Assembly: GCA_963718055.1 (NCBI GenBank)
Contig: CAVQXZ010000005.1
Span: 590,055 to 654,054 of the forward strand
DNA length: 64,000 nucleotides
DNA from: an uncultured Holophagae bacterium
GTDB taxonomy: Bacteria; Acidobacteriota; Thermoanaerobaculia; Thermoanaerobaculales; Sulfomarinibacteraceae
Direction of reading: 5' to 3'
Below, in pieces: positions 1-26,510 of this stretch (the stretch's first letter is position 1; each line of letters starts with the position of its first letter). Position numbers and translations under genes: made by a program. The notes below the pieces were generated by a model. That model was not told the DNA's origin and did no database searches. It saw nothing but the letters and a program-made list of their open reading frames with translations.

Positions 1-3000
1 GAACGCCACATAGCCGAGCTGGGTCACGCTCGGGGTCCCCAGCACCCCGAGAAAAACCGTGTTCCCGGTGTTCAGATCCACCGCCCGGAGCTCCGCCTGG
101 AAGGTCGCGTTGTTGAACGCCGCCATGTACATCGTCCCCGTCACCGAGTCGAAGTCCATGCCCTGACCGTAGTTCGCGTCAAACCCGATCGACCCGATGA
201 TCGTCCCCGCACCCGTCGACTTGTTGATGCTCAGCAGCGAGTCGTTGACCAAATCGTAGGTGTACAGATTCCCCGCATCGTTCGCCCCGATCCCGATCGA
301 GCACGGCGAGTTCGAAATCGCCCCGATCCGCGTCGCCGTCGCCGTCGTCACGTCAATCGTGAACAGCGACGAAGTCGTGATGTTGCAGCTCGTCGCGTAC
401 ACGTTCCCCGTCGACGGGTCAAACGTCATCCCCGTGTACGTCTCCCCACCAGGCGGCGTCGCCAACGTCCCGATCGACGTCTCCGCTCCCGTCGCCGCAT
501 CCACCGTCATCAGCGTGTTCGTGTCCCTGATCACGTAGGTCTTCGTCAGGTCGCCCCCGACAAAGTCCCCGGCCCAGAAGTAGCTCGTCGCCGGCCCCAG
601 CGTGTTGAGTGTCCCCGGCGTGTCAGAGTCAAAGTAAATGTGCGTCGAAACCGACGCGTCCGTCGAGAACGCAAAGGTCCCAGGCAGCCTCACCAAAAGG
701 TTCGGCTCCCCAGCCGCCGCGGTCCGCATCGCCTCCTCCGGCGCCGGACCAAACGACGGCGCCGCCTTCCCGCGTGGGAAGTCACCGTTGCTCGCCGGAA
801 TCTCGATCGGCGGCGCCTCCTCGATGTCCCACAGCAGATCCGACGCTCCCACGTTGCCAATCGTCATCGGCAGCGTCACCACCGTGTTCGTCATCTGGCT
901 CGACGCCAAACTCGTCGGATTCACCGTAATGTCCGGATCCGAGGTCAACACTGAGGCCGTGTCACTGTCCGATGCCTCCACCGTCTCCGTCGGCGTGTAA
1001 CGCACCGCCAGTGGCGTCGGCAGGTCTTCGGTGCCGTAGTAGTACTGCACACCCACCGTCCCGTCCTGGTTCTCGACCCCCGCCGAGTGGTTGCTGCCGT
1101 CCCCTGTTGCCAGCGCCGCCTGATAGTGCACCTCGATTACACCCGTCGTCTCGTACAGCTTGAACTGCATCGTCACCGGGAGGTTGCCCGGAGAGCAACA
1201 GTGCGGCACGTTGGTGAACTGGACGATGCAACCGGCGGTTCGGGCGCGGATCCCCAGAGTCTGGTAGGTGACCGGGCCGCCTCCAGGCGGGTAAAAATCA
1301 TCCCACCAACCCGCAATGACGCCGTCGGGATCACCAGCGGTCGGAATCGGCTGACCAGTGCAGCAGCCGCTGTTCTGCCCCGGCAGCACCGTCAGGAACC
1401 CGTTGGAGCTGACGTAGATGTCCGAGTAGCCCGTCCCGTAGTAGTCGAACGTGAAGCCCAGCGGAATCGCGCCGCTCACCTCGTCGTCGCCCAGCGCGAA
1501 TCGCCGTCCCACTGGTCGAGATGTCCTCCCAGTTGTAGGGGATCGTGTCGTCCATCTGGTACCCGCCGACCGCGGTCGCCGCGGTCCAGGTCCCAGTGTT
1601 CACCACCGGACCCGAGACCACGTCCGGAACGATCACCTCCGGACTGAACGCCCCCGGCGCCAGCACGTACGGCAGATCGTCGAGAATCTCGCCCAGCTGG
1701 TCGTCATCCAAATCGTGGAAGTTGAACGTCACATCACCCGTGTTCTCAGCCACATAGCAGTAGTACACCGTGGTCCCAGTGCTCACCGTCACCGTGTCCG
1801 TCGCCGCGCACACCCCAGGCACTGTACCCACCGTCTTCGTCAGCTCGATCGACGGGCCCTCACCTCCAAATACATCCAGCGTCACCGGCACGACCACCAG
1901 GTTGGTGCCGTTGCCCGGACCGGGGTCCGGATCGTCGCTGAAGGCGCACAGGTTCGCGTTGTAGGTGCCGGTCGCAAGACCGCTCGAGTCGAAGGTCACC
2001 TGGACCGGCGTCGAGCCTCCGCCAGGGATGGTGCCGCTGGTCGGCACCTCGCTGAGCCATGGGACGTCGGCCGGATTGGCACAGTCCACCTGCTCCCCGC
2101 CGGCCAGCCACAGGATGGCGTTGTGCACGACATCCGGCATCTGGCCGGTGTACAGGAAGTAGTAGCCCACGTAGCCGGCGATGGTCGCCACGCTCTGTCG
2201 TCCTTGACGGCCACGGCAGCTCGTTGTCCGCCCAGCGCGCCACCTCCGACGAACCGGCGGTAAGGCCGTGCCGGTCGCCCGGTAGTACTGTCGCAGACGT
2301 CGGTGACGCCGGCCATGATCGGGTGGGCCGGGTTGTAGGTGCCCAGGCACGAGTTGCTGAAGGCGGTAGCTGGTCGTCGTCATGGCCGAGTAGCCCGGGT
2401 GCGGAAGCGGCCCTGGTAGCCCCAGCCCGGATCGATGCCGAACATCAGGTCGATGACCTTGCCGCCCGCGTCCACATAGTCGGCCAGCACGTCGCCGATG
2501 GCGGTCGGATCGGCGAACAGTAGTTGGACCAGACCAGGACCACGTCGTAGGTCTGGAGCTCGGCCAGGGTCGGCGTGGTGGCGCGCGGATCGTAGAGGTA
2601 TCACCGCCCAGGTCGCCGTAGGCCTGGAGCAGCGTCTGGATCGGGCTGCTACCGTAGGTATTGTCGTCGTCGGCCGCCAGCAGCAGCACGTTCGGCGGCA
2701 CGTAGGTGAGTGCACGCCGCTGTATGGCGTAGGTGCCTTCTGGCCGCTGGGTGTAATGGCCGGTCACGGCCGTCCCCTCCGGCGCCTCGGTCGGGCCGGC
2801 CGGGACCGTGACGTACACGGTGTCCAGGATCAGGGGCTCCTCGCCCAGGTTCCAATCCAGGCTGCCGCCGCCGGTGTTGGCGATGGTCAGGGTCTGTTGG
2901 GTCGTGGTGTTCTGCGCCTGCGTGCTGCTCAGGTTGAGCGGGCTCACGTCGATGTTCGCAACCTGGGTCTCGGTGACGGTGAGCGACATTGGCACCACGA

Positions 3001-6000
3001 CCAGGCTGGTTCCATTGCCGGGTCCGACGTCGGGGTCGTTGCTCGCCAGGCACAGGTTGGCCGTGTAGCTTCCAGCCGCCAGGCCGGTCGAGTCGAAGGT
3101 CACTGTGACCGGAGTCGAGTCGCCGCCGGCGGTGGTCCCGTCGACAGGAGCCTCGCTCAGCCACGGCACATCGGCCGGGGCACTGCACACCTCGCCGCCA
3201 CCGATGGTGCCGTTGAGACGGAAGATCTGGTCAGGATTGGTCCCGACGCCACACTGCGTGACCCGCGGGCCCCAGTCGGTGCAGGTGGTGCCGAAGCCGC
3301 CACCCGGGTTCCGCCAGGCCCCCGCGCTGGTGGACTGCACGGTGCGCTCGGTCCAGCCCCACTGGCCGCCGACGCTGAAGTCCATCCTGGCCTGCACTGA
3401 CACCCAGTAGGTGCCTGCAGGCAGGACCGCCGGCACCGTCAGGTCGATCGTGAAGGATCCGAGGCCGCCGGGATCAGTCGGCACCAGACCGATGGCGCTG
3501 TAGACCTCGGCGCCGGGCAGACCTGCGGCGTCCAGGTAGAAGTAGACGTTGACCGCCGGCGCCGGGCCGGTGCCATTGAAGTAGGCGCCGGCGACCTCGA
3601 CCTGTTCGATCGTCCATGCGACGTCGCCGGTCGGGATCACGAAGTCGTCCGCCGCCTGGTTGTCGAAGGCATCGTTGGAGGCTTCGAAGTCCTGCGAGGT
3701 GATGCTGTTGGCGCCGGGGTTGTCGGTCTGGTCGTAGAGCACGGCCTCCGGACCGTTGTAGCGCGGCAGCTCGTTTCCAGCGGGGCCGATTGTGAGGATG
3801 GAGCTGTTCTGAGCCTGCTGGTTCTCGCCGGTGGGGCTCCCCACCATCCAGGCCATCGGACCGCGGACGCGGACCGGGACCAGAAGGTTCGGCTCCTCGG
3901 CCAGGGTCCACGTCAGGTCCTGCTCGCCGGTGTTGGCGATGGTCAGGGTCTGCTGGGTCGTGGTGTTGGGGGCCTGAGTGCTGGCGAGGCTCAGCGGAGA
4001 CACGTCGATGTTCGGCGGTGTCTGCATGACGCACTGGACGTGGCGGTTCGCCAGACCAGTGTAGTTGAAGCTGGAGGTTGAGCCGCCCACAGCGTAGATC
4101 TGATTGTCGAGAGTGACGGCGCTGGTGCGGTAGACCGCACCCGCGGCGAGGTTGCCGCCGTCTGCCCAGGCACCGGCCGTGACGTCGAAGAAGCTGGTGT
4201 TCGCGATGGAAGACCCCAACGGGCCTGTGCCGCCGGTCACCCAGAGCTGCGTCGAGCCCTCGTGCACCTTCTGCGCGTAGCCCATGGCCCAAAGGGTCCC
4301 GCTCAGGGGGCCCAGGTCGGCATTCTCGGCGCCCCAGGTGCCTGCCACGAAGTCGTAGCACTGGGTGGTCGCCGTGGCGATGCTCGAGCTGTTGACACCC
4401 CCAGCCACGCACAGCAGCTTGCGGTTCGTGGCGTCTCTGAACACCCAGGCGGCGTGGAAACCGCGCGTTGAAGTGAAGTTGGGCAGCGGCGTCAGCCACG
4501 CGTTGGTGGCCGGGTCGTAGACGTTGACGGTGGTCAGGTTGCCTCCACCCGCCACGCTTGCGCCGCCGGTCAGGTAGCAGTAGCCGGTCTCGGCGTCAGC
4601 GGCCCAGGCCGGGGTCCAGATGCCGGTCGTGGCGGGCGGCGTGCCGCCGGGCGTCTCCTGCGCCCAGGTGGTGGTCGCCATGTCGTAGGACCACAGGCCG
4701 GTGAAGCCGGCCGTGGACGTGTCGCCGTACATGAAGACCTTGCTGCCGGCCTGGCAGCCCGAGTGGGCGTAGTTGCCGAGGAAGGTCGGTGGTGTGCCGA
4801 CGATCGTCCAGGTGTTCGTGGCCGGATCGTAGTAGCGCACGTCGCAGGTTGGCGCCGTAGCCGGTGATCGACCACACGTAGCCGCCCCACGCGCCCAGAA
4901 CGTTGTCCATGCGGCCGCTGTTGGGCTCGCTGGCGATCTGCTCCCAGTAGATGTTGGCAGCGATGGTCGCAAACGTGGCCGAGTCAGCCCAGCCGTAGGT
5001 CTGGCCGAGGGCGGTGACGGTGGCCGTGTCGCTGCCGGTCGTCCAGGGGAGGTCCACGCGTCACGGTGACCTGGGCGGAGGCGCCGGCGCCGAGCGCAAG
5101 CTGCCACGGATTCGGCGTCGTATCCCAGAGCTGTCCGGAGATGCTGAAGTCGAACGTGTCGCCGTTCGGCGTCATGTTGGTCAGGCTCAGGCCGTCGTAG
5201 ATGACGGTGCTGCCGGGACAGCCTGTCTTGGCGCCGTTGGGCCCGAAGGACACGTACGGGCAGGGGTACCAGCCCTCGGCGAGGCCGGCGTCGTCCAAGT
5301 AGAAGTTGTTGCCGTAGGCGCTGATGCCCAGGAAGCCGAGGTAGACGCCGTTGATGTTGTAGCCCGCTGGCAGCACGATACCGTGCTCCTTCCAGCAAGC
5401 GGTCGGGCACGAGGCGTCGTAGCGCAGCACGGGCGCGCCCACGTCGACCCAGGTGACGCCGTCGGTCGAGACCTGGACCTGGAGGCGGTCGGCGGTCGTC
5501 GTGTATCCGGTGTCGTGCGACATCCAGAACACGACTTGGGGCGCCTGGAATGCGCTCAGATCGAGCGCGTTGGTCCACAGCCGGGCCATCCCGCCGCTTT
5601 GGGTGCTGTAGGAGTTGTACTTCGCCATGTAGGTGCCACTGTGCGGGTTGATCGCCGGCGAGGTTCCGACGGTCACCTGGCTCCAGTCGGGGTCGGTGCC
5701 TGGGTCGAAAACGATCGTCTCGGTCCAGCCCGGCGGCGGGACGCTGACCTCAAAGCCGTCCAGGGGCAAGGGGGTGCCCCCCGCAAGAAACGTCGAGGCC
5801 GACTTGGTCACCGCGCCGCCGAACAGACCCGGATCGTCCATCGTCGCCTGGTTGACCACAGTCGTGCCGCAGGCCACAACGTCGGTGTCGACCGAGAAGC
5901 TGACCGTGACCTCGCCGGCGACGGCCACGTTGCCGTCCCACTCGATCTGGTTGGGGCCGGCGTTGTAGCTGCACGAGCCGGCGCTGCACGCCACAGACCC

Positions 6001-7021
6001 CGCGACATAGGTCGTGCCGGCCGGGATCGGGTCGACCAGCGTCGCCGTGGTGGCGGCGGCGGTGCCCGAGTTGACGATGTGGACGACGTAGGCGAGTTGG
6101 TCACCAATGACCGCCCCCGCCGGCGCCGTCTTGTACGAGGTGGTGAAGTTCGGGCTCGGCGGGATCGGCGTCCAGCTCCAGGTCAGGCCCGAGGGAGGGA
6201 GGTAGGCGTTGCTCAGCGTCACCGTGGAGGTGTTGAGCGTGCCGGCGGCGGTAGTGGTCCAGCCGGTCGCTGCTCGAGCGGTTGTTGAAGTCAGCGTTCG
6301 AGGCGCCCCTCAGCCCGACCTGAACAAGAATGCTCCCCGCACCCATCGAGAAGTTGCCGTAAACTACCTCGACCAGGTTGGTGGTCTCGTACAGTCGGAT
6401 CTGGAAGTTGTAGATCTGGTCCGGGGCGCCGTAGTGGCGGAAGTTCTTCCACTGCACGACGGCCACGCGGTTCGGCGCCGCGCCGAGCGTCTCCAGCCGG
6501 ATCTCTGAGTTGGTGGTGTTGGTCTGGAGGTCATGGCCTTGGGCCACCACGATGTTGTTGGTCGAGCCGCCGCTGATCGGGGTGTAGGAGCTCGAGACCG
6601 TCGCGCCCATGGCGAGGAAGCCGTTGCACTGGACGCTGACAGCCGTGTAGCCCACGCCGTTGAAGGTGAAGGTGAATGGGATGGCGTTGGCGTTGTAGTT
6701 GTTGTCGTCACAGACGGTGGTCAACTGCGTCCCACCCGTGATCTCGGTGTAGGTGCCGGTGATCTGGCTCCAGCCGTAGTCGGTCGCCACACCTTCGACT
6801 CCTGCCTTGGCAGGCAGCCCCGGCGTGTCGTCGGGCGGCTCCTTCCCCGGGGGTAGCTGCTCGGCGGCCTTGGCCGCCTCAGCGACTGCGACCGCGTCAT
6901 CCGCGCCGACGCTGGCCCTCGCCACCGCGGCACCCATGTCCTGCGCGGCCGCGCAGATCGGCAGCAGCGACAGCAGCATTGCGAGCATCACCACAACCAT
7001 CCGACCGTCCCTGTGTTGCAT
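1..7021 (-). CDS. Giant secreted modular protein A (nidogen-like, DUF11-like, cleaved-adhesin-like, Kelch, 3 BACON-like scaffolds with inserts); runs off window start; frameshifted
   Basis: ATG at 7021 with AAGGAG RBS and signal peptide [27 protein letters not shown]. Continuous homologous coding across ORFs 6101-7150, 4984-6222, 4596-5057 and 1331-5578. Positions 1-1000 closely match the 3' part of gene B (about 7660-8655). Confidence 0.85.
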
Positions 7022-7215
7022 GATCAGGTACTCCTTCTTCCCCCTGAGGCATTGCTCTTCACCCCGCCGCACGACGTCGCCGCAGCCCGGCAGGGGTGGA
7101 TGTACACATTCGCCCAAAAGTCTGGCGTTGGCTCGCGTGAAACCGCGCACGTTGCTGTGCGCTGCGTGGCCACCACCATCCTCCTCCGTGTCTCGTAGTT
7201 GAGACTGATGATAAA

Positions 7216-7265
7216 AGTGACACCTGTCACAAAGCAGTCTAGTTGCGACTCGTCGGCTGAGTCAA
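7216..7265 (-). promoter_or_regulatory. Sigma70-like promoter of gene A plus palindromic operator
   Basis: Minus strand TTGACT(7265-7260)-N18-TAGACT(7241-7236). AGTGA-CACCTG-TCACA palindrome at 7216-7231 just downstream of the -10. Confidence 0.6.
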
Positions 7266-7337: not shown

Positions 7338-7367
7338 AAAAAGCCGCCACCCCGGGGGGTGGCGGCT
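7338..7367 (-). terminator. Rho-independent terminator of gene B
   Basis: Minus strand AGCCGCCACCCC-loop-GGGGTGGCGGCTTTTT; same hairpin follows genes C, D and E. Confidence 0.9.
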
Positions 7368-7410
7368 GGTTGGTCCATGTTCGCGCGGGGTTGCCCGCGC
7401 ACTGTCTCCC

Positions 7411-10400
7411 CTACTCGATCGAAATCCCCATCAGCTCGACCGGAATCACCACCTCCATCTGCACCGGCACCTCCACGATCGGCTCGTCCGGATCGTTGCT
7501 GTTCACGCACAGCACCCCGTCGTACGTCCCGACCGCGATCCCCGTCGAATCAAACGTAACGTCCACCGGGTTCGTCCCGCCAGGAATCGTCGTCCCAGCC
7601 GTCGGATTCACGCTCAACCACGGCAGATCCGACGGGCTCGAGCACGGCCCGCCCGACTGGAATGCGACATAGCCGAGCTGGGTCCCCGGGGTCCCCAGCA
7701 CCCCCAGCAGCGTCGTGTTCCCCGTTGCGAGGTCCACCGCCCGGAGCTCCGCCAGGAAGGTCCCATTGTTGAACGCCGCCATGTACATCGTCCCCGTCAC
7801 CGAGTCGAAGTCCATCCCCTGACCGTAGTTCGCGTCAAACCCGATCGACCCGATGATCGTCCCCGCACCCGTTGACTTGTTGATGCTCAGGAGCGAGTCG
7901 TTGACCAAATCGTAGGTGTACAGATTCCCCGAATCGTTCGCCCCGATCCCAATCGAGCACGGCGAGTTGGTGATCGCACCAATCCGCGTCGCCGTCGCCG
8001 TCGTCACGTCAATCGTGAACAACGACGAAGTCGTGATGTTGCAGCTCGTCGCGTACACGTTCCCCGTCGACGGGTCAAACGTCATCCCCGTGTACGTCTC
8101 CCCACCAGGCGGCGTCGCCAACGTCCCGATCGACGTCTCCGCTCCCGTCGCCGCATCCACCGTCATCAGCGTGCTCGTGTCCCTGATCACGTAGGTCTTC
8201 GTCAGGTCGCCCCCGACAAAGTCCCCGGCCCAGAAGTAGCTCGTCGCCGGACCGAGAGTGTTCAGTGTCCCCGGCGTGTCAGAGTCAAAGTAGATGTGGG
8301 TCGAGACCGACGCGTCCGTCGAGAACGCAAAGGTCCCAGGCAGCCTCACCAGAAGGTTCGGCTCCCCAGCCGCCACGGTCGCCATGCTCTCCTCGGGTGC
8401 CCGAGCAAACGACGGCGCCGCCTTCCCGCGTGGGAAGTCACCGTTGCTCGCCGGAATCTCGATCGGCGCCGCCTCCTCGATGTCCCACACCAGATCCGAG
8501 GCACCGACGTTGCCGATCGTCATCGGCAGCGTCACCACCGTGTTCGTCATCTGGCTCGACGCCAGGCTCGCCGGTGTCACCGTAATGTCCGGATCCGAGG
8601 TCAACACTGAGGCCGTGTCACTGTCCGTCGCCTCCACCGTCTCCGTCGGCGTGTACCTCACCGCCTCCGGCGTCGTCAACGACGCAGTCCCCAGGTAGAA
8701 CTGCAACCCAACCGTACCATCCGCATTCTCCACACCAGCCGAGTGCGTCCCACCGTCCGACGGCGCCGCCTGGTAGTGCACCTCGATCACACCCGTCGTC
8801 TCGTACAGCTTGTACTGCAACGTCACCGGGTTGCCGCTGCCATAGTGCTGGATGTTCGTGAACTGCACGATCAGCACGCCGATTCGGCCCGCTCCCCATC
8901 GTCTGATAGTGGACCGTGCCGCCCGCTGACGGATTCATGTCCTCCCACCACCCCGCAATCATCGCGTCCGGCGACCCCACACTTGGAATCGGCTGCCCAG
9001 TGCAACACCCAGTGTTGCCGTCGTTGAGCATCGTCACAAAACCGTTCGAACTCACGTAGGCGGTCGTGTACCCAGTCTCATAAAAGTCAAACGTGAACCC
9101 GATCGGCGCCGGCAGCACCGAGTCGTCGCTGAGAGCCAGCGGCGTGCCCGTCCCCGAGATGTCCTCGAAGTTGTACGTGAATCGTGTCGTCCACGGCGTA
9201 GCCGCCGACCGCGGTCGCCGCGGTCCAGGTCCCGGTGTTCACCACCGGACCCGACACCACGTCCGCAACGATCACCTCCGGACTGAACGCCCCGGGCGCC
9301 AGCACGTACGGCAGATCGTTGAGAATCACACCCAGCTGGTCGTCGTCAAGATCGTGGAAGTTGAACGTCACGTCACCAGTGTTCTCAACCTGGTAGCAGT
9401 AGTACACCGTCGTCCCGGTGCTCACCGTGATCGAGTCCGTCGTCGCACACACACCAGGCACCACACCGACGGTCTTGTTCAACTCGATCGCGGCGCCCTG
9501 CCCGGCGATCACCTCCATGGTCACCGGCACCGGCACCACGCCCTCGTCCGGGTCGTCGCTGAAGACGCACAGCGTGGCGTGAGTACATCCCCACGGCCTA
9601 GCCGGTGGAGTCGAAGCTCACGGTGACCGGCTGGACCCCCGCCGGAGCGATCGAACCACTGATCGGGTTGGCACTGAGCCACGGCACGTCCGCCAGGGCG
9701 CCGCAGATCGCCGGCATCCCCTCGATGATGAACGGCAGCCCCTGCGGGCCAACGTCGATGAAGTTAGCCCAGACTCCCGTGGACACGGTCTGCTGCATCG
9801 CGTTGCCGGTCGTGGTCTGACCGAGAATCGTGATCGCCGGCGCCCACGGGCCGGAGGCCAGGCTGCCGCCGACCTGCCAGTCGAGCCAGTAGGTGCCCGC
9901 CGGCAGCACCGTGTTCACCGTGCCGACCGCCGTCATGATCGGACGGTTGCATCGTGGTCAGGGTTGTGTCCGTCACTCGATAGATGTTCGTCCACGTCGT
10001 GCTGGTCAGGATGTTGGTCGTGGTGTCACCCCAGATCACGCTGCCTCCGGCGTTCGGCGGGCCGTCCCAGATCTGCAGGTTGAGCGAGGTGATGGTGGAG
10101 GTGGTCGTGGAGCCGGTCTGGTAGGGGAAGAAGGTGATGGTGTCGATGTCCCAGCCGGCGGGGTCGGTGACGGTGAAGTCGTCGGCAACCCGGTAACCGG
10201 TTGACAAGGAGCAGCTGGTTCCAAAGGTGGTCATGCCGAGCGCCGTCTGCAAGGCGCTGGCGTCGGCGCCGCCGCCGCCCTGTCCGGGGTGGGTCACCAG
10301 GGGCCCGTTGTCGTACAGCACGAGCTCGGGCCCGACCCACTCCACCGTCTCGGGGAACCACTCCGGCGCCTTGTCCGGCGGACCTTCACCGAGCCGCTCC

Positions 10401-12300: not shown

Positions 12301-12330
12301 AAAAAGCCGCCACCCCGGAGGGTGGCGGCT
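12301..12330 (-). terminator. Rho-independent terminator of gene C
   Basis: Plus strand AAAAAGCCGCCACCCCGGAGGGTGGCGGCT. Confidence 0.9.
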
Positions 12331-15300: not shown

Positions 15301-17208
15301 GAGGTGGCGATGGAGCTTTTCTGCGTCTGCTGGTCCTCGCCACTCGGCGCCCCCACCATCCCGGCCATCGGGCCCAGGACATGGGTCGGGAGGAGAACGG
15401 TGGGCTCCTCGACGATGGCCCACGTCAGGTCCTCGCCGCCGGTGTTGGCGACGGTCAGGGTCTGCTGGGTCGTGGTGTTGGGATCCTGGATGCTGACCAG
15501 GCTCAACGGATCCACGTTAATGTTCGGCGGCCCCCCTTCCGCGACGATCAGTTCGACGCCCACTATCACCAGGTCGGTACCATTGCCCGGGCCGGGGTCA
15601 GGATCGTTGCTCGACACCTCCAGGCTGCCGCCGTAGCTACCCGGAGCGAGCCCGGTCGAGTCGAAGGTCACCGTCACGTCGACGCACTCGCCCGCCACGA
15701 GCGTCCCCACGAACGGACTCTCAGACAACCAGGGAATGCCGGCTGCTCCGCACACCGGCACGGTGGCCAGCGGGTTGACCGCCTCGTCGCAGGGTTCCGT
15801 GCTCATGGACGCCGGGGTGTAGCTGTCGCTGGAGCATGGATGGTGAGGCACGTTGTTGTAGCCGTCGCCGTCCCAGTACCAGGAGACGCCCGCGTCGGCC
15901 GGGCCGGCCCCGGCGGTCGCATCGAAGCAGTAATAGCCCACACAGTCATCGGTGTAAGCGTGGTAGGCCGGGTGGTAGATGTTCACCTCGTACGGGGGGG
16001 TCTCGAACGACCAGCTGAAGGTGCCCCACGTGCCACCGCCCGTGCAGGATGGCGTTCCCTGCACGTAGACGCTGGATACGTTCCAGTCGGCCGGGAATTT
16101 CTGCCAGACGTTGTAGCGGTACTCCCAGTCGGTGGTCAGTGACTCGGCCCTGAAGCAGAAGGTGCCCGCAGCTCCCGGCGTGTAGCAGGTTTCGCCGCCG
16201 ACCGACGGATCAAAGGCGACGTACGAGCCGCTCAGCGACTTTGGTTGCCCGGCCGGCGCCTTCTCGATCGTCGCGCCCTTGAGCGTTGCCACCTCGCTCA
16301 GACTCCAGGTCAGGTCGGTCTCGCCGGTGTTGCAGATCTGCAGCGTCTGCGTGGTGACGGTATCGGGCAGCTGCGTGGCAGTCAGGCTCAGCGGATTGAC
16401 GTCGATGTTCGGATCCTGCGGCCCGCCTCCGGGCGTGCCCTCGATGATGAAGGGCAGGTCCTGCTGGAAGGTGACGTGCCAGCGCCGGACCCCACGTTGC
16501 GGTCGTGGGGTTGTACTGCAGGCCGTTGGAACCGGGCTTGGCGGTCTGGCCCAGGATGGTCACAGGCGGCGCCCACGGCCCAGAGGCGAGCGTGCCTCCG
16601 GTCTGCCAGTCCAGCCAGTAGGTGCCGGCCGGCAGGACCGTGCCCACGGTCACAGTGTCGGCCATGATCGGGCGCTGGGTGTTGGTGAGGGCGGTGTCGA
16701 GGACGCGGTAACTGTTCGACCATTGGGTGGCCGCCAGCACATTGGTGGTGGTGTCGCCCCAGATCACGCTGCCGCCTGCGCTCGGGTCCCCGTCCCAGAT
16801 CCGCAGGTTGACGTTGTTGATCGTGGAGGTCGTCGTCGACCCGGTCTGGTAGGCGAAGAACGTGACCTCGTTGATGAGCCAGCCGCCCGCTGGGACGGTG
16901 AAGTCGTCGGCCATGCGAAAGCCGGAGCTGATCGCGTGACCGAAGCCGTAGGAGGTCAACCCGATCGCGGTCTGCAGCGCGCTGGCATCGGCGCCGCCGG
17001 CACCGCCGCCGGGGTGGGTGACGAGCGGCCCGTTGTCGTACAGCACAACGTCGGGCCCGTCCCACATCGGGACGTTGAAGTTGGGCGCCGGCCCCGGCGC
17101 CGAGGTCGCCGTGGTGTCTTCGAGCGCCTGGCCGGCGGCCATGCCCGCCATGGCGAAGGTGCCCACGAGGGCCATCACCAGAACCGCGAAGATCTTCAAA
17201 CTGCGCAT
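12375..17208 (-). CDS. Giant secreted modular protein C, C-terminus [12 protein letters not shown]; frameshifted
   Basis: ATG at 17208 with GGAGGAGG RBS and signal peptide [26 protein letters not shown]. ORFs 16210-17241, 14352-16292, 14006-14386 and 12375-13691 tile one protein. Confidence 0.85.
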
Positions 17209-17295
17209 GAAACCCCCTCCTCCGTCAAAATGGCAATCCATTCAGCCTTGTTGAATCACGAATCGAAACCTTGTCTCAAGATTCCGCCATGTCGC

Positions 17296-17345
17296 AATAA
17301 CACTTCTCACAATTTACGACAACCCATTCTGTAATGCAAGTCACT
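17296..17345 (-). promoter_or_regulatory. Sigma70-like promoter of gene C with CRP/FNR-like box(es)
   Basis: TTGCAT(17339-17334)-N17-TAAATT(17316-17311). TGTAA-TGCAAG-TCACT at 17330-17345; weaker AATAA-CACTTC-TCACA at 17296-17311. Confidence 0.6.
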
Positions 17346-17398
17346 GACCACCGCCGGTTGCCGCTCGTCACCTTGCGCACAAGTCGGCGAACTGGAGG

Positions 17399-17428
17399 AA
17401 AAAAAGCCGCCACCCCGGAGGGTGGCGG
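17399..17428 (-). terminator. Rho-independent terminator of gene D
   Basis: Same GCCGCCACCC hairpin with a T7 tract on the minus strand. Confidence 0.9.
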
Positions 17429-17474
17429 CGGTTGGTTCATGTTGGCGCGGTGTCGCCCGCGCGTCTGTTGTCCC

Positions 17475-20400
17475 CTACTCGACCGAGATGCCCATCAGCT
17501 CCACAGGAATCACCACGTCCATCGTCACCGGCACCTCGACCAACGGCTCGTCAGGATCGTTGCTCAGCACGCACAACAGCGCGTTGTACGTCCCAACCCC
17601 GACCACCGTCGCGTCAAACGTCACGTCCACCGGAGTCGACCCGGGACCAGGCGTCGTCCCCGCATCCGGGCTCACGCTCAGCCACGGGATGTCCTCCGGC
17701 ATCATGCACTGCGACGCCGCCCCGTCAATGATGAACGGCAGGTCCTGCGGATAGCTCACGTCCACAAGGGCCGCCCACCCTGTGCTCGTGTACTGCATCG
17801 CGTTCGCCCGGCTTGCCAGTCTGTCCCAGGATCGTCACCGGCGGCTGCCACGGCCCAGAGTAGCTCGCGCTCCCGTTGAACTGCCAGTCCAACCAGTACG
17901 TCCCAGGCGGCAGCACCGTCCCCACCGTCCCCACCACCGCCATGATCGGCCGGTCGGCGTTCGTCAGGGTGCCCTCCAGCACCCGATAGTCGTTGGACCA
18001 TGTCGTGCTCGTCATGATGTTCGTCGTCGTGTTACCCCAGATCACGGTGCCGCCAGCGTTGGGCGGCCCGTTCCAGATCTGCAGGTTCAGCCCGGTGATC
18101 GACGACGTCGTCCCAGACCCCGTCTGGTACGCAAAGAACGTGATCGTGTCGATCTGCCAGCCACCGGCATAGCTGACCACGAAGTCGTCCGCCACCCGGT
18201 TCCCGGCCGACAGCTGCGCGCCAAACCCGTAAATCGTCAGTCCGAGCGACACGTCCTGCAGCGCGCTCGCATCCGCTCCACCTGCGCCCTGCCCAGGATG
18301 CGTGACCAGCGGCCCGTTGTCGTAAATCACCGCCTCCGGCGGCGCCCACGGCCCACGCTCCGGATACCAGGTCGGAGTCTTGCCAGACCGGCACATCCCC
18401 GACCCGCTCCTCTGCCACCGAGGCGTCACCAGGCCCCACCGGATCCAGGATCGGCGGGAACGGCCCCACCGGCCTCGGTCGGCGCACCAGCCTCGTCGAT
18501 CGTCCAGTTCAAGGTCCCGCTGCCGGTGTTGCCGATGTTCAATACCTCGCACGTCCGTCGTGCCCACCAGCAGCGTGCTCGTCAGGCTCGCCGGCGTCAC
18601 GTTGATGTCAGGATCCGACACGTTCACGGTCGCCGTATCGGTCGTACGACGCCGTCTGCTCCACCGTCGGCGTGTACCGCACCGCCTCAGGCGTCGGGAT
18701 CGCCGCCGTCCCGTAGTAGAACTGCAGCCCGACCGTCCCGTCCTGGTTCTCGATCCCCGCCGAATGGTTGCCGCCATCCGACGGCGCCGCCTGGTAGTGC
18801 ACCTCGATGACGTTCGTGCCCTCGAACAGCTTGTACTGCAGCGTCACCGGGTTGCCGCTCGAATAGTGCGGCACGTTCGTCACCTGGAAGATCAGCCGCC
18901 GGTTCGGCGCGCTGCCCCAGCACCTGGTAGTGGTGCGTGCCGCCGCCGGAGGGGTTCATGTCCTCCCACCAACCGGCAATGACGCCGTTTGGTGTCGACA
19001 CGTTCGGCAGGTTCTGACCGGAGCAGCAACCGTTGCTGGTCCCGGTCGTCTCCAGGAAGCCGTTTGACGACACCCAGAAGTCGGTGTACGCCGTCCCGTA
19101 GAAGTCAAAGCTGAACCCGATTGGGAAGGTCGCCGTCGAGTCGTCCGTCAGCGCGACCGGCGTGCCCGTCCCCGAGATGTCCTCGAAGTTGTACGCGATC
19201 GTGTCGTCAAGAATGTACCCGCCGATCGCATCCACCGCCGTCCATGTCCCAGTGTTCACAACCGGCGCCGTGATCGTCTCAGGCACGATCACCTGTGGGC
19301 TGAACGCCCCTGGCGCCAACGTGTACGGCAGGTCGTTCAAAAGCGTCCCCAGTTGATCGTCCACCAGATCGTGGAAGTTGAACGTCACGTCTCCGGTGTT
19401 CTCAACCTGGTAGCAGTAGTACACCTCGGTGCCCGTCGCCACCGTGATGGTGTCGGTCGTGGCGCATACCCCTGCCACCGTACCAACCGTCTTCGTCAGC
19501 TCGATCGACGGACTCGCCCCGCCGACGTTCACAGTCGCCGTGTCCGTCGCTTGCGCCGACGGCCCGCCGACGACTGACGCCGTCCAGGTGCCGGTGTTGG
19601 TCGTGGTGGTGTTGATCACAGACGGGATGCTCAGGCCGGCCTGCACCGTGTTGACGTGGCACCGGGCGCAAGCGAGTAGTTGAGCCCGGTGAAGATCGTC
19701 CCAAGCTGGTTGTCTGACAGGGTCGTGAAGTCGTGAAGGTTACGTCGCCGGTGTTCGTCACCTCGTAGCAGTAGTAGACCGTCGTGCCGGCCGACAACCG
19801 TGATCGTACTGGTCGTCGCGCAGACGCCCGGCGTCGTTCCGACTGTCTTGTTCAAGCTGATCGCCGGGTTTGTTCCCGCCGCGACGTTCAACTCGACTGG
19901 CACGACCACCAGGTCGGTGCCGTTGCCCGGGCCCGGATCCGGATCGTTGCTCGTCACGCACAGGTTCGCGTTGTACGTACCGACCGCAAGGCCGGTCGAG
20001 TCGAAGCTCACCTGGACCGGCGTCGAGGCGCCGCCCGCGGTCGTGCCGTTCGACGGCGCAGTGCTGAGCCACGGGACGTCGGCCGGGCTCTGGCACAGCG
20101 ACGGCGCGCCACTGGCGTACTCGAAGGTGTCGATGCCGATGTAGTCCGAGTTGCTGCCGCTCGGTCCGGCGTCGGTCACGTAGTAGCGGAACCCGACCCT
20201 CCCGGTCGCACCGCCGGGGATCCCGGAGAGGGTAACCGTGAACTGCGTCCACACCTCGGGATAACCGCCCACCGCCAGCGATGGATTGACCGTCAGAAGC
20301 AAGGTCGTGAAGTCGCCCACGTCGGTTGCCAGCGTGCCCACGTTCGTGCTCGAACCGGCCGTACTCAGGCGCACCTCCAGCCGGTCCGGATATACGGAGC

Positions 20401-21694
20401 CGGTCGCGGTGCGGGTCCAGAACGCTATCGTGTCACCGTCGGCGAGCGCGATCTGCGGGGTCAGCATCCAGTTGCTGATCGTCCCCACACCTGACGTGTT
20501 GTTGAAGTTGGCGCCGATGTAAGAGGTCGGGGTGCCTGCATGGGCGGGGAACACAGTGTCGTTGCCCTGGAACCAGTCGGTCAAGCCCAGGGGCGAGCTG
20601 TTGTTCTGGAAGAACCACCCCTGGCCCGGCAGCAGCGTGATGTCTTCAAAGCCCTCCGCGAAGTCCTCCGGCGACTCGTACGCAATCGGCGGGGTCGCAT
20701 CTGGTGTGTACCCGCGGGCACCCACGGCCCCGGTAGCCGGCGGGCGCGGGGCCGAGCCCCCGCCTCCGGACACCACCACCACGTCCGGCTCCTCGAGAAT
20801 GGCCCACGTCAGCGCCTGATCGCCGGTGTTGCCGATGTCGAGGGTCTGGCTGGTCGTGGTGTTCTGCACCTGGGTGCTCGCCAGGCTGAGCGGGGTCACG
20901 TTGATGTTCTGATCGGTCCCGCACGGCCCGCACACGAACTCGATCGCCGCGCCATCCGTGACCGAGGCCGCCAGGTTGCAGGCGTAGGTCAAACCCCAGT
21001 CCGCCGCAGCGTTGTTGCCTTCGATGCCCTCGGTCGAGCCCGAACCTTCCTCCGCGCCGGCGTCCTCGTACTGAATGATGACGTTGCCGCTGCTGGCGAA
21101 GAGGATCGCCTCCCAGGTGCCGGCGATGGCGCACGAAGTGCCGCCCGGGTAGTGGCAGAAGTCGTCATACTGCACGACCAGGCAAGCTCCGCTCCCAATC
21201 GGGCAGGTTCCGAAGGTCTGGTAGTAGACCAGGTCGCCCGTGTCGCCGGGGTCAAGGTCATCCCACATCAGGGCGATGATGTTGTTGGGGGTGGTGGTGT
21301 TCGGCAGGGGGCACTGGTTGGTGAGGGTGCTGGAGCCCGCCCCGAACGAGATGTAGCCGTTGCTGGCGACATAGAAATCGCTGTAGGCGGTCCCGTAGAA
21401 GCTGAAGTTGAAGCCGATGGGGAATGGGCCGAGATAGCCATCGTCGGTCAACCCGGCGATCGCCGTGCCGGTCGTGCTGATCTCCAGCCACTCATAGGTG
21501 GTCGCCTGGCCTGAGTAGCCAAAGCCATCTGGCCCAGGCCACACCGCCTCTGGCCCGGACTGACCCGCCTTCAGGGAGGCGCCATTGTCCACGGCGACCG
21601 CCAGCAGCGGCTGCCTCTCAGCCCCGCCCACTGCCGCCATCATCAGCAGCGCAACCACGATCAAGACTCCGCGATCCAACCAGTGAGCTCTCAT
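17475..21694 (-). CDS. Giant secreted modular protein D (nidogen-like, choice-of-anchor-J-like insert), C-terminus [12 protein letters not shown]; frameshifted
   Basis: ATG at 21694 with GGAGG RBS and signal peptide. ORFs 19631-21775, 18687-19646, 18608-18883, 17725-18777 and 17475-17798 tile one protein. Confidence 0.85.
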
Positions 21695-21820
21695 GACGTC
21701 CTCCCCTCCTGAAGTGCTTCCGCCAGGTGAGGCACCCGCCTCACCGCGTTGGCTTCGATCTACGTTGTGACACACAACACATCCTACGCCAGCCGAGCCC
21801 GGGCAATCAACCCCCTGCCC
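21695..21820 (-). promoter_or_regulatory. Promoter and 5' UTR of gene D, near-identical to that of gene E (26381-26510)
   Basis: TTGATT(21810-21805)-N18-TAGGAT(21786-21781). TGTGA-CACACA-ACACA at 21766-21781. UTR hairpin GGTGAGGC-N4-GCCTCACC. Confidence 0.6.
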
Positions 21821-21901
21821 AGATCAGGAGCGAGGGCCCGCGTCGGACCCCGGACCTGCGCATTCACGGCGTGACGCAGGAGCGCCCGCAATGATCGACC
21901 G

Positions 21902-22229
21902 ATCGAGTAGGAGGCGCCCCGGGTAGGGGCGCCGTCCTCTCACACCACCGTACGTACGGTTCCGTATACGGCGGTTCGAAGCGGACACTGCAGTCGGCGA
22001 TGCTCCTCGAGCAGGCTCAGGAGAGCTGGTACGCCCGTAGCTACTATGGCCTCGGCTGACTTCTGACCCCGCCTCGTGGCGGACGCCCTTGCTGTTCGGC
22101 TCGGAGTTCCGGTCATCACGGCCCCCAGGGGACTTCCACCCCCAAGCCACTTCCCGGCTCGGTTTCCCTCCCCGGTTGCAACCGACATGACCACGCCAGT
22201 CATGTCGCTTCGCGCCATGCCTGGCGCAC
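21902..22229 (-). mobile_element. ORF-less, internally deleted group IIC intron
   Basis: Minus strand starts GTGCGCCAGGCATGG. Ends with domain V GAACCGCCGTATACGGAACCGTACGTACGGTGGTGTGAGAGG and domain VI ...CCTCCTACTCGAT. Inserted directly after a Rho-independent terminator, the established IIC target. Confidence 0.9.
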
Positions 22230-22233
22230 AAAG

Positions 22234-22262
22234 AAAAAGCCGCCACCCCGGAGGGTGGCGGC
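22234..22262 (-). terminator. Rho-independent terminator of gene E (intron target)
   Basis: Same GCCGCCACCC hairpin followed by TTTTTCTTT and then the intron 5' end. Confidence 0.9.
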
Positions 22263-22307
22263 GGTTGGTTCGTGTTGGCGCGGGGTCACCCGCGCGTTGG
22301 TTGTTCC

Positions 22308-25300
22308 CTACTCGATCGAAATGCCCATCAGCTCGACCGGAATCACCACCTCCATCGTCACCGGCACCTCGACCAACGGCTCGTCAGGATCGTTACTCAG
22401 CACGCACAACAGCGCGTTGTACGTCCCAACCCCGACCACCGTCGCGTCAAACGTCACGTCCACCGGAGTCGACGCGCCGCCAGGCCGTCGTCCCCGCATC
22501 CGGGCTCACGCTCAACCACGGGATGTCCTCCGGCATCATGCACTGCGACGCCGCGCCGTCAATGATGAACGGCAGGTCCTGCGGATAGCTCACGTCGAGG
22601 AGGGCTGCCCACCCCGTACTGGTGTACTGCAAGGCGTTGGCACCGGGCTTGCCCGTCTGTCCCAGGATCGTCACCGGAGGCGCCCACGGCCCCGACGCCA
22701 ACGTCCCGTTGAACTGCCAGTCCAGCCAGTAGGTCCCGGGCGGCAGCACCGTCCCCACCGTCCCCACCACTGCCATGATCGGCCGGTCGGCGTTCGTCAA
22801 GGTACCTTCCAGCACCCGGTAGTCGTTCGACCAGATCGTGCTGGTCATGATGTTCGTGGTGGTGTCACCCCAGACCACGGTACCGCCGGCGTTCGGCGGC
22901 CCGTTCCAGATCTGCAGGTTCAGGCCGGTGATCGTCGATGTGGTCCCGGAACCGGTCTGGTATGTGAAGAACGTGATTGTGTCGATCTGCCAACCGCCGG
23001 CATAGCTGACCACAAAGTCGTCCGCCACCCGGTTCCCGGCCGACAGCTGCGCACCAAACCCGTAGATGGTCAGACCGAGCGACACGTCCTGCAGCGCACT
23101 CGCGTCCGCACCGCCCGCGCCGCCACCGGGATGGGTGACCAGCGGACCGTTGTCGTAGATCACCGCCTCCGGCCCCGCCCACGGCCCACGCTCCGGATAC
23201 CAGGTCGGGGTCTTGCCAGGAGGCACATCCCCTACCCGCTCTTCTGCAACTGAGGCGTCACCAGGCCCCACCGGATCCAAAATCGGCGGGAACGGCCCCA
23301 CCACCTCGGTCGGCGCTCCAGCCTCGTCAATCGTCCAGTCCAAGACCCCACTGCCCGTGTTGCCGATGTTCAGCACCTGCGTGTCCGTCGTCCCCACCAG
23401 CAACGTGCTCGTCAGACTCGCCGGCGTCACGTTGATGTCAGGATCCGAGATGTTCACGGTCGCCGTGTCGGTGTCCGACGCCGTCTGCGCGCACCGTCGG
23501 CGTGTACCGCACCGCCTCAGGCGTCGGAATCGCCGCCGGTCCCGTAGTAGTACTGCAGCCCGACCGTCCCGTCCTGGTTCTCGATCCCCGCCCGAATGGT
23601 TGCTCGCCATCGCCGACGGCGCCGCCTGATAGTGCACCTCGATCGACGTTCGTGCCCTCGAACAGCTTGTACTGCAGCGTCACCGGGTTGCCGCTCGAGT
23701 AGTGCGGCACGTTCGTCACCTGGAAGATCAGCCGCCGGTTCGGCGCGCTGCCCAGCACCTGGTAGTGATGCGTGCCGCCGCCGGAGGGGTTCATGTCGTC
23801 CCACCAACCGGCAATGACACCGTTTGGTGTCGACGCGTTCGGCAGGTTCTGACCGGAGCAGCAGCCGTTGCTGGTCGCCGGTCGTCGTCCAGGAAGCCGT
23901 TTGACGACACCCAGAAGTCGGTGTACGCCGTCCCGTAGAAGTCGAAGCTGAACCCGATCGGGAAGGTCGCCTCGAGTCGTCCGTCAGCGCGACCGGCGTG
24001 CCGGTCCCCGAGATGTCCTCGAAGTTGTACGTGATCGTGTCGTCCACAGTGTACCCGCCGATCGCGATCGCCGCCGTCCATGTCGCCAGTGTTCACCACC
24101 GGCGCCGTGATCGTCTCAGGCACGATCACCTGTGGGCTGAACGCCCCTGGCGCCAACGTGTACGGCAGGTCGTTCAGAAGCGTCCCCAGTTGATCGTCCA
24201 CCAGATCGTGGAAGTTGAAGCGTCACGTCTCCGGTGTTCTCAACCTGGTAGCAGTAGTACACCTCGGTGCCCGTCGCCACCGTGATGGTGTCGGTCGTGG
24301 CGCATACCCCTGCCACCGTACCAACCGTCTTCGTCAGCTCGATCGACGGACTCGCCCCGCCGACGTTCACAGTCGCCGTGTCCGTCGCCTGAGTCGGGGC
24401 GCCGGCGGCATCGTGTGCCGTCCAGGTGCCGGTGTTGGTCGTGGTGGTGTTGATCACCGCCGAGATGCTCAGGCCGGCCTGCACCGTGTTGACAGTGGCA
24501 CCGGGCGCGAGCGCGTAGTTGAGCCCGGTGAAGATCGTCCCGAGCTGGTTGTCTGACAGGTCGTGCGTCGTGAAGGTCACGTCGCCGGTGTTCGTCACCT
24601 CGTAGCAGTAGTAGACCGTCGTGCCGGCTGCGACCGTGATCGTGCTGGTCGTCGCACACACGCCCGGCGTCGTTCCGACTGTCTTGTTCAAGCTGATCGC
24701 CGGGTTTGTTCCCGCCGCGACGTTCAACTCGACTGGCACGACCACCAGGTCGGTGCCGTTGCCCGGGCCCGGATCCGGATCGTTGCTCGTCACGCACAGG
24801 TTCGCGTTGTAGGTGCCGAGCGGCAGGCCGGCCGAGTCAAAGCTCACCTGGACCGGCGTCGAGGCGCCGCCCGCGGTCGTGCCGTTCGACGGCGCAGTGC
24901 TGAGCCACGGCACATCACTCGGCAGGTCGCAGACGTCCGGGATCGCCGGGGCTACCAGGCTGAAGTCGTCGTAGTAGATCACCGACGCATTGTTGGCGAA
25001 CAGGTCGACGGCGCCGATGTTGAGCGCGCCGCCGCCGCTCACCTCGGCCGTCCACGTACCCGAGTAGAGCAGGCTGCTGTTGTAGTAGAAGGCCTGGGTG
25101 TCGGCTGTGAGGTTGATCTCGAACCGAAGCTCGACCCACTGGCCCTTCACCAGCGGCAGCGTGCCGCCGGAGAATCCGGTATTCGTCACCAGGTTGGTGG
25201 CGGCGTTGAACGAGACCTGGACCGACCAGTTCAGGTTCGTGCCGGGATCGTCGTACGAGTTGAGCAGGATGAAGTAGGACTCGCCGGTGAAGTCGGTCGG

Positions 25301-26380
25301 CACGTACTGCCAGGCCGTGTAGGTCCACTGGCCGGCCGTGTAGCCCGCGTACTCGTGCACCAGGTCGCTGGCGCCGAGGATGGCGGCCGAGTTGGGAGCG
25401 CTGTGGGACTGCACGTTGCTGGTCAGCGCACCGGCGGCTGCGATGTTCCCCCAGCCCTTCCAGCCACCCTGTCCGTGGAGCTGGCTGCCGGTCGCGTAGC
25501 CGTCGAAGTTGTCGAACCAGTCGACGAACTCCGGCCCGCCTTCTTCCAAGATCGCCCACGTGAGTGCCTGGTCGCCGGTGTTGCCGATGGTCAGCGGCTG
25601 CTGGGTGACCACGTTCTGCGCCTGCGTGCTGCTGAGGCTGAGCGGGGTCACGTTGATGTTCTGCGGCCCCCCGCCAGCGGTCGTGGTGACGGAGACGTCG
25701 TCGAGGTACCAGCCCGAGTAGTTGACGACCGTGGACGCCATCATGTGGAACTCGATGGTGACCACACCGCCGACGTAGGGCGTCAGGTCAACTGTCTGCT
25801 GGACCCAGGCCGTCGGCGCGGTGTAGCTGCTCTCGCAGTGCGGGAACACCCGGGTGCCGTTGGCGTAGACCTCGGCCCAGTCCCAGTTGCTGAAGAGGTC
25901 GTACCACTCCCACCAGGACAGCGTCGCGTCCGGCAATCCCGTGAGGTCCACGGTCAGGGTGAGGATGCTGTCGTCGGCGGGGTTGGTGTTGGTGCAGGTC
26001 GCGTAGCCGGTGTTGTTGCCGCGGTTGTTGTAGCAGTCGTTCAGCACCGTGCCCCACATGTGGGTGCCGGAGTAGGCCCCGGCTGGCTCGGTCCCCCCGC
26101 CGCAGTTAGCCCCGACCCACGCGTAGACCCCCCACTCCCAGTCAAGCGTACCCACCAGGCCGCCGTTGCTCGCCTCGAAGTCGGAGAAGAAGACGATCGC
26201 CTCCGGCGCGCCGGCCGGCGCCTCCGCCGCCTTCGTCGCGTACACCGGGGATGCCTCCCAGGCCGCGGCGGCCGCGAGCTCGGCGGCGACCTCGTCCTGC
26301 GGGACCGCTGCCACCGCCCCAGCCGCGATCAGCAGCGCCCCGACGAGAGAAAACCCGCGATTCAACCAGTGACCTCTCAT
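22308..26380 (-). CDS. Giant secreted modular protein E, C-terminus [12 protein letters not shown]; frameshifted
   Basis: ATG at 26380 with GGAGG RBS and signal peptide MRGHWLNRGFSLVGALLIAAGAVAA. ORFs 24116-26632, 23791-24201, 23438-23794, 22447-23637 and 22308-22499 tile one protein. Confidence 0.85.
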
Positions 26381-26510
26381 GACCTCGTCCTCCCCTCCTG
26401 AAATGCGTCCGCCAGGTGAGGCACCCGCCTCACCGCGTTGGCTTCGATCTGCGTTGTGACACACAACACATCCTACGCCCGCCGGACCCGGGCAATCAAC
26501 CCCCTGCCCG
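26381..26510 (-). promoter_or_regulatory. Promoter and 5' UTR of gene E
   Basis: TTGATT(26499-26494)-N18-TAGGAT(26475-26470); TGTGA-CACACA-ACACA at 26455-26470; copy of 21695-21820. Confidence 0.6.

Follow-up and report, generated by a model that had tools for sequence, protein, structure and literature searches.

The window analysed here, a stretch of 64,000 nucleotides (nt), is C5:590055-654054 of an uncultured Holophagae bacterium whose assembly (GCA_963718055.1; C5 is contig CAVQXZ010000005.1) comprises 4.43 Mb in 12 contigs with a G+C content of ~69%. Positions are those of the window, and those below 1 denote sequence before its start on contig C5. Region 1-26510 consists of minus-strand coding sequence in which the frame changes every few hundred bases, and it holds part of a tandem array of genes for very large proteins in which an immunoglobulin (Ig)-like domain is repeatedly split by an inserted domain. 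Gene models were derived by tracing a Viterbi path of reading frames from codon usage and translating that path, which yielded five genes, A to E, all on the minus strand (Table 1).

Twelve split units, all on the minus strand and all divided at the same point, were located in these genes by motif scan and translation (three in A, two in B, three in C and two each in D and E), in agreement with a preliminary description of this DNA. The first half carries the motif I.V.P.SL...N.G...L.W and the second half the motif C..P..PWLS..P..G...V.V.FD...Y...L.V.SNDPD, with a half-to-half gap of 546-840 nt. Across the 4.43 Mb genome, both motifs are confined to the locus, barring two stray second-half-like hits. 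Seven of the 12 units can be read in one frame, the remaining ones being broken by 1-2 nt errors. The assignment of seven insert types to these units by the preliminary description held for every unit, as did its finding of a YDNGP domain free at the N terminus of gene C, which was seen in the translation and domain map; the match that it drew between the first domain of gene B and the YVAFDPS insert is present but weak (28.5 bits, 14 of 48 residues identical).

The array begins before the window, where two further genes, Z1 and Z2, carry the C-terminal motif (tail) shared by the array proteins and further split units with YVAFDPS, second-propeller-type, NHL-like and YDNGP inserts; homologues of their N-terminal region are named proprotein convertase P-domain proteins. 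In its entirety it consists of seven genes with 17 units plus one degenerate unit over ~42 kb (-15773..26380), and the half-to-half gap over the 17 units is 546-991 nt. The array is thus larger than the five genes that had been described. The degenerate unit, the last of Z1, has a short insert with a YDNGP-like start and an LLLAADD-type end, followed by a normal second half and the tail; it could be a deletion, a fusion or a collapse within an error-rich stretch.

Table 1. Genes, split units and other features of the locus, in window coordinates (aa, amino acids; insert types are given by their label)
Feature	Position	Strand	Length	Content	Remarks
Gene A	-245..7021	-	~2420 aa	NIDO-like, DUF11, choice-of-anchor-J-like, Kelch propeller, three split units, tail	extends past window start; from translations, Pfam/NCBIfam, signal peptide by eye
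Gene B	7414..12042	-	~1540 aa	units B1 (YDNGP), B2 (FAFSTD/DUF4394), tail	
Gene C	12378..17208	-	~1610 aa	free N-terminal YDNGP, units C1 (YVAFDPS), C2 (LYDQTDN), C3 (FAFSTD), tail	
Gene D	17478..21694	-	~1405 aa	NIDO-like, D1 (choice-of-anchor J), DUF7507 x2, NIDO-like, D2 (YDNGP), tail	
Gene E	22311..26380	-	~1356 aa	MAM-like, E1 (WFDNFD), DUF7507 repeats, NIDO-like, E2 (YDNGP), tail	
Gene Z1	-554..-7010			further split units, shared tail	before window start
Gene Z2	-7321..-15773			further split units, shared tail	before window start
Unit E1	24710..25672	-	321 aa	WFDNFD	one frame
Unit E2	22314..23445	-		YDNGP	frame broken
Unit D1	19877..20917	-	347 aa	choice-of-anchor J	one frame
Unit D2	17480..18614	-		YDNGP	frame broken by single extra bases absent from public short-read contigs
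Unit C1	15534..16418	-	295 aa	YVAFDPS, Cys-rich, no known family	one frame
Unit C2	14481..15533	-	351 aa	LYDQTDN	one frame; chosen for folding
Unit C3	12411..13562	-	384 aa	FAFSTD (DUF4394/DUF6923 beta-propeller)	one frame
Unit B1	9477..10595	-		YDNGP	frame broken
Unit B2	7447..8598	-	384 aa	FAFSTD	one frame; flanks 99-100% identical to C3 flanks
Unit A1	2969..4021	-	351 aa	LYDQTDN	one frame
Unit A2	1855..2962	-		LLLAADD	frame broken
Unit A3	1..939	-		FAFSTD	second half just outside window, at -33
Degenerate unit	about -6600..-7010			YDNGP-like start, LLLAADD-type end	last of Z1
Hairpin + T run	7342-7367	-			after stop of B
Hairpin + T run	12305-12330	-			after stop of C
Hairpin + T run	17406-17429	-			after stop of D
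Hairpin + T run	22239-22262	-			after stop of E
Group II intron remnant	21902-22103	-		domains V-VI	in 647-nt D/E spacer
Xaa-Pro aminopeptidase gene	26583-28085	-			adjoins array
Transposase-like fragment	60660-60893				

The scaffold of the units belongs with the BACON_2 and HYDIN-type Ig models of Pfam, which match after the inserts at profile positions ~37-90 only: scores of 40.1 and 33.6 bits were obtained for PF22544 (HYDIN_VesB_CFA65-like_Ig; cut-off 25.5) and of 33.1, 34.2 and 30.1 bits for BACON_2 (PF19190; cut-off 25), all of them passing. In E1, for example, BACON_2 covers residues 252-297 only (profile 39-84 of 94). One Pfam match lies before an insert (profile positions 2-38), and the choice-of-anchor D model (NF012200) gave two first halves 35.6 and 28.5 bits, under its cut-off of 45 and for the first half of the profile only. 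In none of the 17 array units does the ASH/PapD-like Ig domain run as one continuous stretch of ~100 residues. Since the Pfam models score the second half of the scaffold only, split units are overlooked in annotation; a long gap between conserved halves can be annotated as an autonomous, probably ligand-binding domain.

One of the 12 units, C2, was modelled with AlphaFold2 from an alignment with 18 homologous units, and the model was compared with 48,161 solved chains. Predicted local distance difference test (pLDDT) values are 89-98 at residues 1-44 and 280-350. Solved ASH/PapD-like, MSP and HYDIN domains of ~100-140 residues align across model residues 1..351 with 99-110 residues, a root-mean-square deviation (rmsd) of 1.7-2.5 and Z of 11-12.9, among them 6fvi_A (CEP192 ASH; Z 12.5, rmsd 2.5, 108 aligned), 7n6g_4C (Z 12.9) and the HYDIN PapD-like 2ys4 (Z 11.2) and 2e6j (Z 11.0); further matches include the BACON-bearing xyloglucanase 3zmr_B (Z 10.7) and VesB 4lk4_A (Z 9.9). 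As the second half has only ~72 residues, alignments of 99-110 residues must take in the first half as well. With both halves at high pLDDT and spanned by single solved domains, the two halves of the model close into one Ig-like fold around the nested domain, with the seven- to nine-stranded beta-sandwich of the ASH/PapD-like Ig family. A natural unsplit unit was also found: in homologue P0049, the HYDIN-type Ig profile is matched in one stretch (18-90 of 100). Closure of the halves around the insert, as proposed in the preliminary description, is therefore supported by structure prediction, by solved-domain alignments and by this unsplit unit.

The inserts are of several kinds. That of D1 matches choice-of-anchor J over its full length (NF038128, profile 2-161 of 162) and scores 154.9 bits, the cut-off being 30. 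FAFSTD inserts match DUF4394 (50.2-51 bits; cut-off 29.6) and DUF6923 (26-28 bits; cut-off 27). LYDQTDN and YDNGP inserts are remotely homologous to each other, being 26% identical over 189 aa (E 6e-5). In our scans no family was matched by the YVAFDPS, LLLAADD or YDNGP inserts, and the YVAFDPS insert found no match above 0.83 in the Atlas feature search; the nearest Atlas clusters of the WFDNFD insert are ConA-like/CBM at 0.91-0.95 and those with Sialidase-like_CBM and polysaccharide-lyase-like families at 0.91-0.93, to be taken as leads only. Folded alone from 52 sequences, the LYDQTDN insert gave a jelly-roll sandwich at pLDDT 95.4. Its best structural match is the lectin-like domain of Cwp84 (4ci7_A; Z 13.9, rmsd 3.3, 157 of 188 aligned), part of a surface-associated protein of Clostridioides difficile, although identity is 12%, the Cwp84 domain is not nested in an Ig domain and a common fold shows no common ligand. 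Next come phage baseplate and tail-tip parts, a virus capsid protein and PHR domains at Z 9-12, with carbohydrate-binding modules at about Z 6; Foldseek returned weak matches (best E 6.6e-5, template modelling score (TM) 0.53). At the 47 loci where the LYDQTDN domain was located, it is flanked by both halves in 18, by one half in 6 and by neither in 23, and it was found without the unit in records labelled Actinomycetes, Ignavibacteria, Verrucomicrobiota and others (scan of species-representative genomes). Being often found without the scaffold halves, the LYDQTDN domain is autonomous; the inserts are thus autonomous domains that also occur outside the scaffold.

Both scaffold and inserts are widespread. 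A protein search with a fragment of gene C returned 185 longer homologues, the 120 listed ones of which were used for pair counts. Of the 163 half-to-half pairs in these 120, 8 have gaps of 9-18 aa and 155 have gaps of at least 176 aa, with no pair in the range 20-160 aa; unsplit versions are therefore rare (8 of 163) and occur in other genomes only. The 162 inserts taken from the listed homologues fall into 10 sequence clusters. All named sources are metagenome genomes, assigned to Chloroflexota, Anaerolineae, Ardenticatenaceae, Caldilineales, Promineifilaceae, Acidobacteria and Thermoanaerobaculaceae, and the whole C2-type unit was found in species-representative genomes labelled Anaerolineales, Caldilineales, Ardenticatenaceae, Acidobacteria, Thermoanaerobaculales and Chiayiivirga.

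The closest known counterparts are RTX adhesins. According to PMC12077191, Ig-like split domains project ligand-binding domains away from the adhesin axis. This design has been described for type I-secreted RTX adhesins, mostly of pathogens. In the units of AhLap, FrhA and MpIBP, as in the units here, an Ig-like beta-sandwich is interrupted by a whole globular binding domain (there a CBM, beta-roll or vWFA domain) and then closes; both kinds of unit lie between extender domains in surface proteins of very large size, and more than one unit, with binding domains that differ, can be present per protein. The C2 model agrees with the definition given in PMC12077191, by which a ligand-binding domain emerges from an Ig-like split domain. 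The differences are several: the host here is an ASH/PapD-like (HYDIN/BACON_2-type) Ig domain split after four strands, whereas in the one RTX case described there the chain leaves after the first strand; export here is by a Sec signal peptide and, probably, a short C-terminal PVELQxFxVE tag, with no resort to type I secretion signals; seven genes in tandem share the units; the genomes that carry them are uncultured and labelled Chloroflexota or Acidobacteria; and instead of a long run of identical extender repeats, one to three DUF7507 repeats lie between units. No RTX/HemolysinCabind family was among the Pfam hits of 20 window fragments (E <= 0.01), type I secretion genes not having been searched for.

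A similar principle is found in the integrin beta subunit, where the hybrid domain hosts the beta-I domain, so that a beta-sandwich likewise holds a whole domain in one loop. Integrin beta chains are indeed among the structural matches of C2 (6bxb_A, Z 8.9; 2p26_A, Z 8.7; 8tcf_B, Z 8.5; ~90 residues aligned within ~300-residue ranges), but they are eukaryotic and have one fixed insert, with no family of alternatives. The choice-of-anchor D and J proteins (NF012200, NF038128) are related to both parts, the D1 insert being a full J domain and the first halves sub-threshold D, yet here J lies inside a D-like Ig domain and the family descriptions mention no split. No description of this split scaffold was found in the open-access literature searched (BACON, choice-of-anchor, PapD-like, domain insertion). 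As the projection of ligand-binding domains from Ig-like split domains has been reported before in RTX adhesins (PMC12077191) and as scaffold and inserts are widespread in other phyla, the principle is not new, and the locus is a variant of that design, not the new system that it had been taken for. It extends the known design to a different Ig family and to uncultured sediment and freshwater bacteria, at the unusually high density of 17 units in seven genes.

Secretion of the proteins, as first proposed, is borne out by Sec-type signal peptides, judged by eye, at the start of each of genes A-E and by the common C-terminal tag. The tail motif [IVL]PVEL(Q/M)x(F/I)x(V/I)(E/D)-stop ends 19 open reading frames (ORFs) genome-wide, 6 in the array (for example at gene ends 7414, 12378, 17478 and 22311) and 13 on unrelated proteins (for example at C1:177559, C1:844302 and C9:32014, given as contig and position); in the array it can follow directly on an Ig half, as in ...VELMGISIE. 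Of 301 genomes sampled from the phylum, five contain a strict DNA pattern of the tail (11, 8, 5, 3 and 1 times), and the reversed control gave 0. No NCBIfam family matched the tail-bearing fragments, and searches of the open-access literature by motif strings found no mention of it. The PVELQxFxVE tag probably directs export or anchoring; its distribution is patchy, and a new kind of sorting signal may be involved. A diderm is indicated by LpxC and seven Omp85 matches in the genome, on account of which the Chloroflexota origin that the names of homologues had pointed to was rejected. A GC-rich hairpin followed by a T run stands after the stops of B, C, D and E (this pattern has 6 matches, against 0 in 100 shuffles), and with this conserved terminator the genes look like separate transcription units.

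Assembly errors account for the frame breaks in the array. Where near-identical paralogous blocks are compared, the indels measure 1-2 nt and are not multiples of 3 in 16 of 17, 34 of 34, 26 of 26, 30 of 30 and 33 of 37 cases; they are clustered and rarely in homopolymers, and single-base ones lie densely, for example 14 in about 420 bp (13687-14109). The extra base at each of 18476, 18550 and 18643 is missing from contigs of three independent public DNA runs, and that at 18915 and 16478 from two, which points to consensus errors rather than gene decay. Every frame segment retains coding G+C content at third codon positions (GC3) and conserved protein sequence. Furthermore, the syntenic genes of a same-genus genome (G006) are intact ORFs of 1384, 1501 and 1760 aa, the first being the orthologue of E. 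Pseudogenes and programmed shifts were rejected as explanations of the breaks, because the single-base indels lie mostly outside homopolymers and are absent from independent contigs and because the G006 orthologues are intact. Same-strand frame switches number 17-28 per 20 kb at C5 560-640 kb, denser than in most other 20-kb bins. The highest count of any bin, 40, is that of C5:1-20000, where further repeat genes may have been insufficiently polished.

At the DNA level, the array is pieced together from duplications of 1-2.7 kb that are 73-96% identical. Its YDNGP units E2, D2 and Z2c are 87-97% identical and its FAFSTD units 90-100% identical. Genes D and E have in common a 2.7 kb block (92.6% identity), which reaches to the point where the second half starts (20074/24910), plus 183 bp at the 5' end (89.6% identity), and differ in the N-terminal domain and the insert of the first unit; the second halves of D1 and E1 are 93% identical and the first halves 75%, and a recent homology breakpoint lies exactly at the insert/second-half junction. 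This second half is the single exception among flanks of units with different inserts, which are otherwise 53-86% identical over 114-180 nt. For comparison between species, a fixed anchor is provided by the Xaa-Pro aminopeptidase gene (named after the source names of its homologues), which adjoins the array here and in three genomes of the same genus (G006:C2, G001:C1 and G005:C4). In G006, where this gene is 88% identical, the orthologue of E is collinear (85% identity), and the D-like and A-like genes keep their N-terminal parts and carry other units; G001 and G005 have three and four tail-bearing genes, respectively. Species of the genus therefore differ in the modules that they carry at this syntenic place, in line with the preliminary description. 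Between gene A and its G006 counterpart, homology breaks off where the first half ends, which is not decisive, since all first halves align mutually, and joints in public contigs were not counted as alternative module orders, having short sides or lying in paralogous places where the window copy is error-rich. These data suggest that units have been shuffled over evolutionary time, with the conserved halves sometimes serving as crossover sites.

Taken together, we consider it probable that the array represents seven or more paralogous genes in tandem, for large Sec-exported adhesin-like or ligand-capture proteins with domains nested in split Ig domains, the product of ordinary diversification. 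The genes encode proteins of ~1350-2800 aa in a diderm, each chain combining beta-sandwich spacers (DUF7507/DUF11-type, NIDO-like) with two or three ASH/PapD-like Ig copies. One loop of each Ig copy, that after the fourth strand, is interrupted by an entire globular domain (170-330 aa), around which the Ig fold closes, so that the insert would, by analogy with RTX adhesins, project sideways from the chain. The inserts, comprising lectin-like jelly rolls (LYDQTDN/YDNGP, choice-of-anchor J, WFDNFD), beta-propellers (DUF4394-type, NHL-like) and others of unknown family, would be the probable ligand-binding parts, presumably held at the cell surface, and the ...PVEL(Q/M)x(F/I)x(V/I)E tag would lead to export or anchoring. 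Diversification would have proceeded by ordinary segmental duplication and by recombination between paralogous units, with the scaffold halves as occasional crossover sites and no dedicated exchange machinery. Several observations weigh against this explanation. Fold closure derives from a single folded unit of 12, in whose model the insert core has pLDDT 55-78 and the linkers <50; RNA-library contigs cover parts of the array, yet transcription is not thereby shown; flanks mostly track insert type, so that scaffold and insert are not freely combined, and insert class is strongly tied to the tree of 170 scaffolds, along which it takes 66 changes, compared with 119.6 +/- 3.3 for shuffled labels and a minimum of 12; homologues carry split units on S8 peptidases, nucleases and a 5'-nucleotidase; and gene number and order come from an error-rich long-repeat assembly, with no aligned public contig spanning the stretch. 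From this last point, together with the dense frame switches and single-base indels, one might take the array largely for an artefact of wrongly expanded or joined repeats, or for decaying pseudogenes. We find this hardly credible, given the intact multi-gene array beside the same aminopeptidase in G006 with its collinear E orthologue, the coding GC3 and protein conservation kept in each frame segment, and the lack of the indels in independent short-read contigs. Active combinatorial display, in which the conserved halves act as recombination sites and frequent passenger exchange varies the surface, would fit the tandem array with shared flanks, the one recent breakpoint at an insert/second-half junction and the variable module content among species at the syntenic locus. 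For 66 of the 170 scaffolds, the nearest one in another protein holds an insert of another class (for 104, of the same class), and the approximately unbiased (AU) test, run on a 66-row subsample with classes 0x, 8 and 9 dropped and at most seven rows per class, rejected the grouping of all scaffolds with choice-of-anchor J inserts in a single clade (P 0.018) and did not reject it for those with WFDNFD (P 0.20). Similarity is nevertheless mostly whole-segment duplication of 1-2.7 kb, flanks around different inserts are diverged apart from the D1/E1 second half, and the joints in public contigs are ambiguous between paralogues. Each gene has its own start, signal peptide and terminator, and hence silent cassettes are absent. 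Neither a recombinase nor a reverse-transcriptase ORF was found within the array (flanking genes were not scanned for recombinases), nor any further ORF by frame path and upstream translation; the sole mobile trace is an ORF-less group II intron remnant. The array thus lacks the marks of a programmed surface-variation system, be it silent-cassette gene conversion or a diversity-generating retroelement. Frequent exchange is thus quite improbable, and no evidence of a dedicated or frequent mechanism was found in the array. The combinatorial display by passenger recombination that was originally proposed is supported in so far as one junction breakpoint and the species differences go; as an ongoing process, single-passenger exchange by homologous recombination is not supported, flanks being mostly of only 53-86% identity over so short a length and whole-segment duplication being dominant.

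As to function, the units may serve substrate capture rather than adhesion, given the enzyme fusions in homologues. On such an account they would be modules of extracellular nutrient scavenging, which seize polymers or particles for degradation, and not surface-holding adhesins. Split units are fused in homologues to S8 peptidases (PF00082), P domains (PF01483), a 5'-nucleotidase and a predicted nuclease; Z1 and Z2 begin with the region related to proprotein convertase P-domain proteins, and the WFDNFD insert lies near the Sialidase-like_CBM and polysaccharide-lyase-like Atlas clusters (0.91-0.93, leads only). No catalytic family was found, however, in 20 window fragments scanned with Pfam (E <= 0.01) or in 10 scanned with NCBIfam, and architecture alone cannot tell capture from adhesion; we regard capture without adhesion as unlikely, and adhesin-like or ligand-capture proteins, taken broadly, as the better account. 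A wider conjecture, which we put forward tentatively and with some doubt, is that one ASH/PapD-like Ig family forms a general 'socket' that has accepted at least 10 unrelated domain families at the same loop and is passed on, either alone or together with its passenger, between genomes labelled Chloroflexota, Acidobacteria, Gammaproteobacteria and Bacteroidota, and that some few lineages end these proteins, along with a dozen others, in PVELQxFxVE-COOH, which would mark them as cargo of an unknown export or anchoring pathway.

The remnant of a group II intron in the spacer between D and E was recognized by RF00029 (domains V-VI, 43.1 bits); the D1-D4 piece of RF01998 scored 32.6 bits, below its cut-off of 35, and there is no ORF. 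Within the remnant, 21932-21977 shows very high depth and many loose ends in public runs. No tRNA was found in the window. Farther from the array, ORFs at 42-64 kb resemble, by eye, genes for sugar modification and polysaccharide synthesis and are accompanied by a transposase-like fragment (Table 1), and over 48000-64000 the G+C content falls from about 0.69 to 0.55-0.63.

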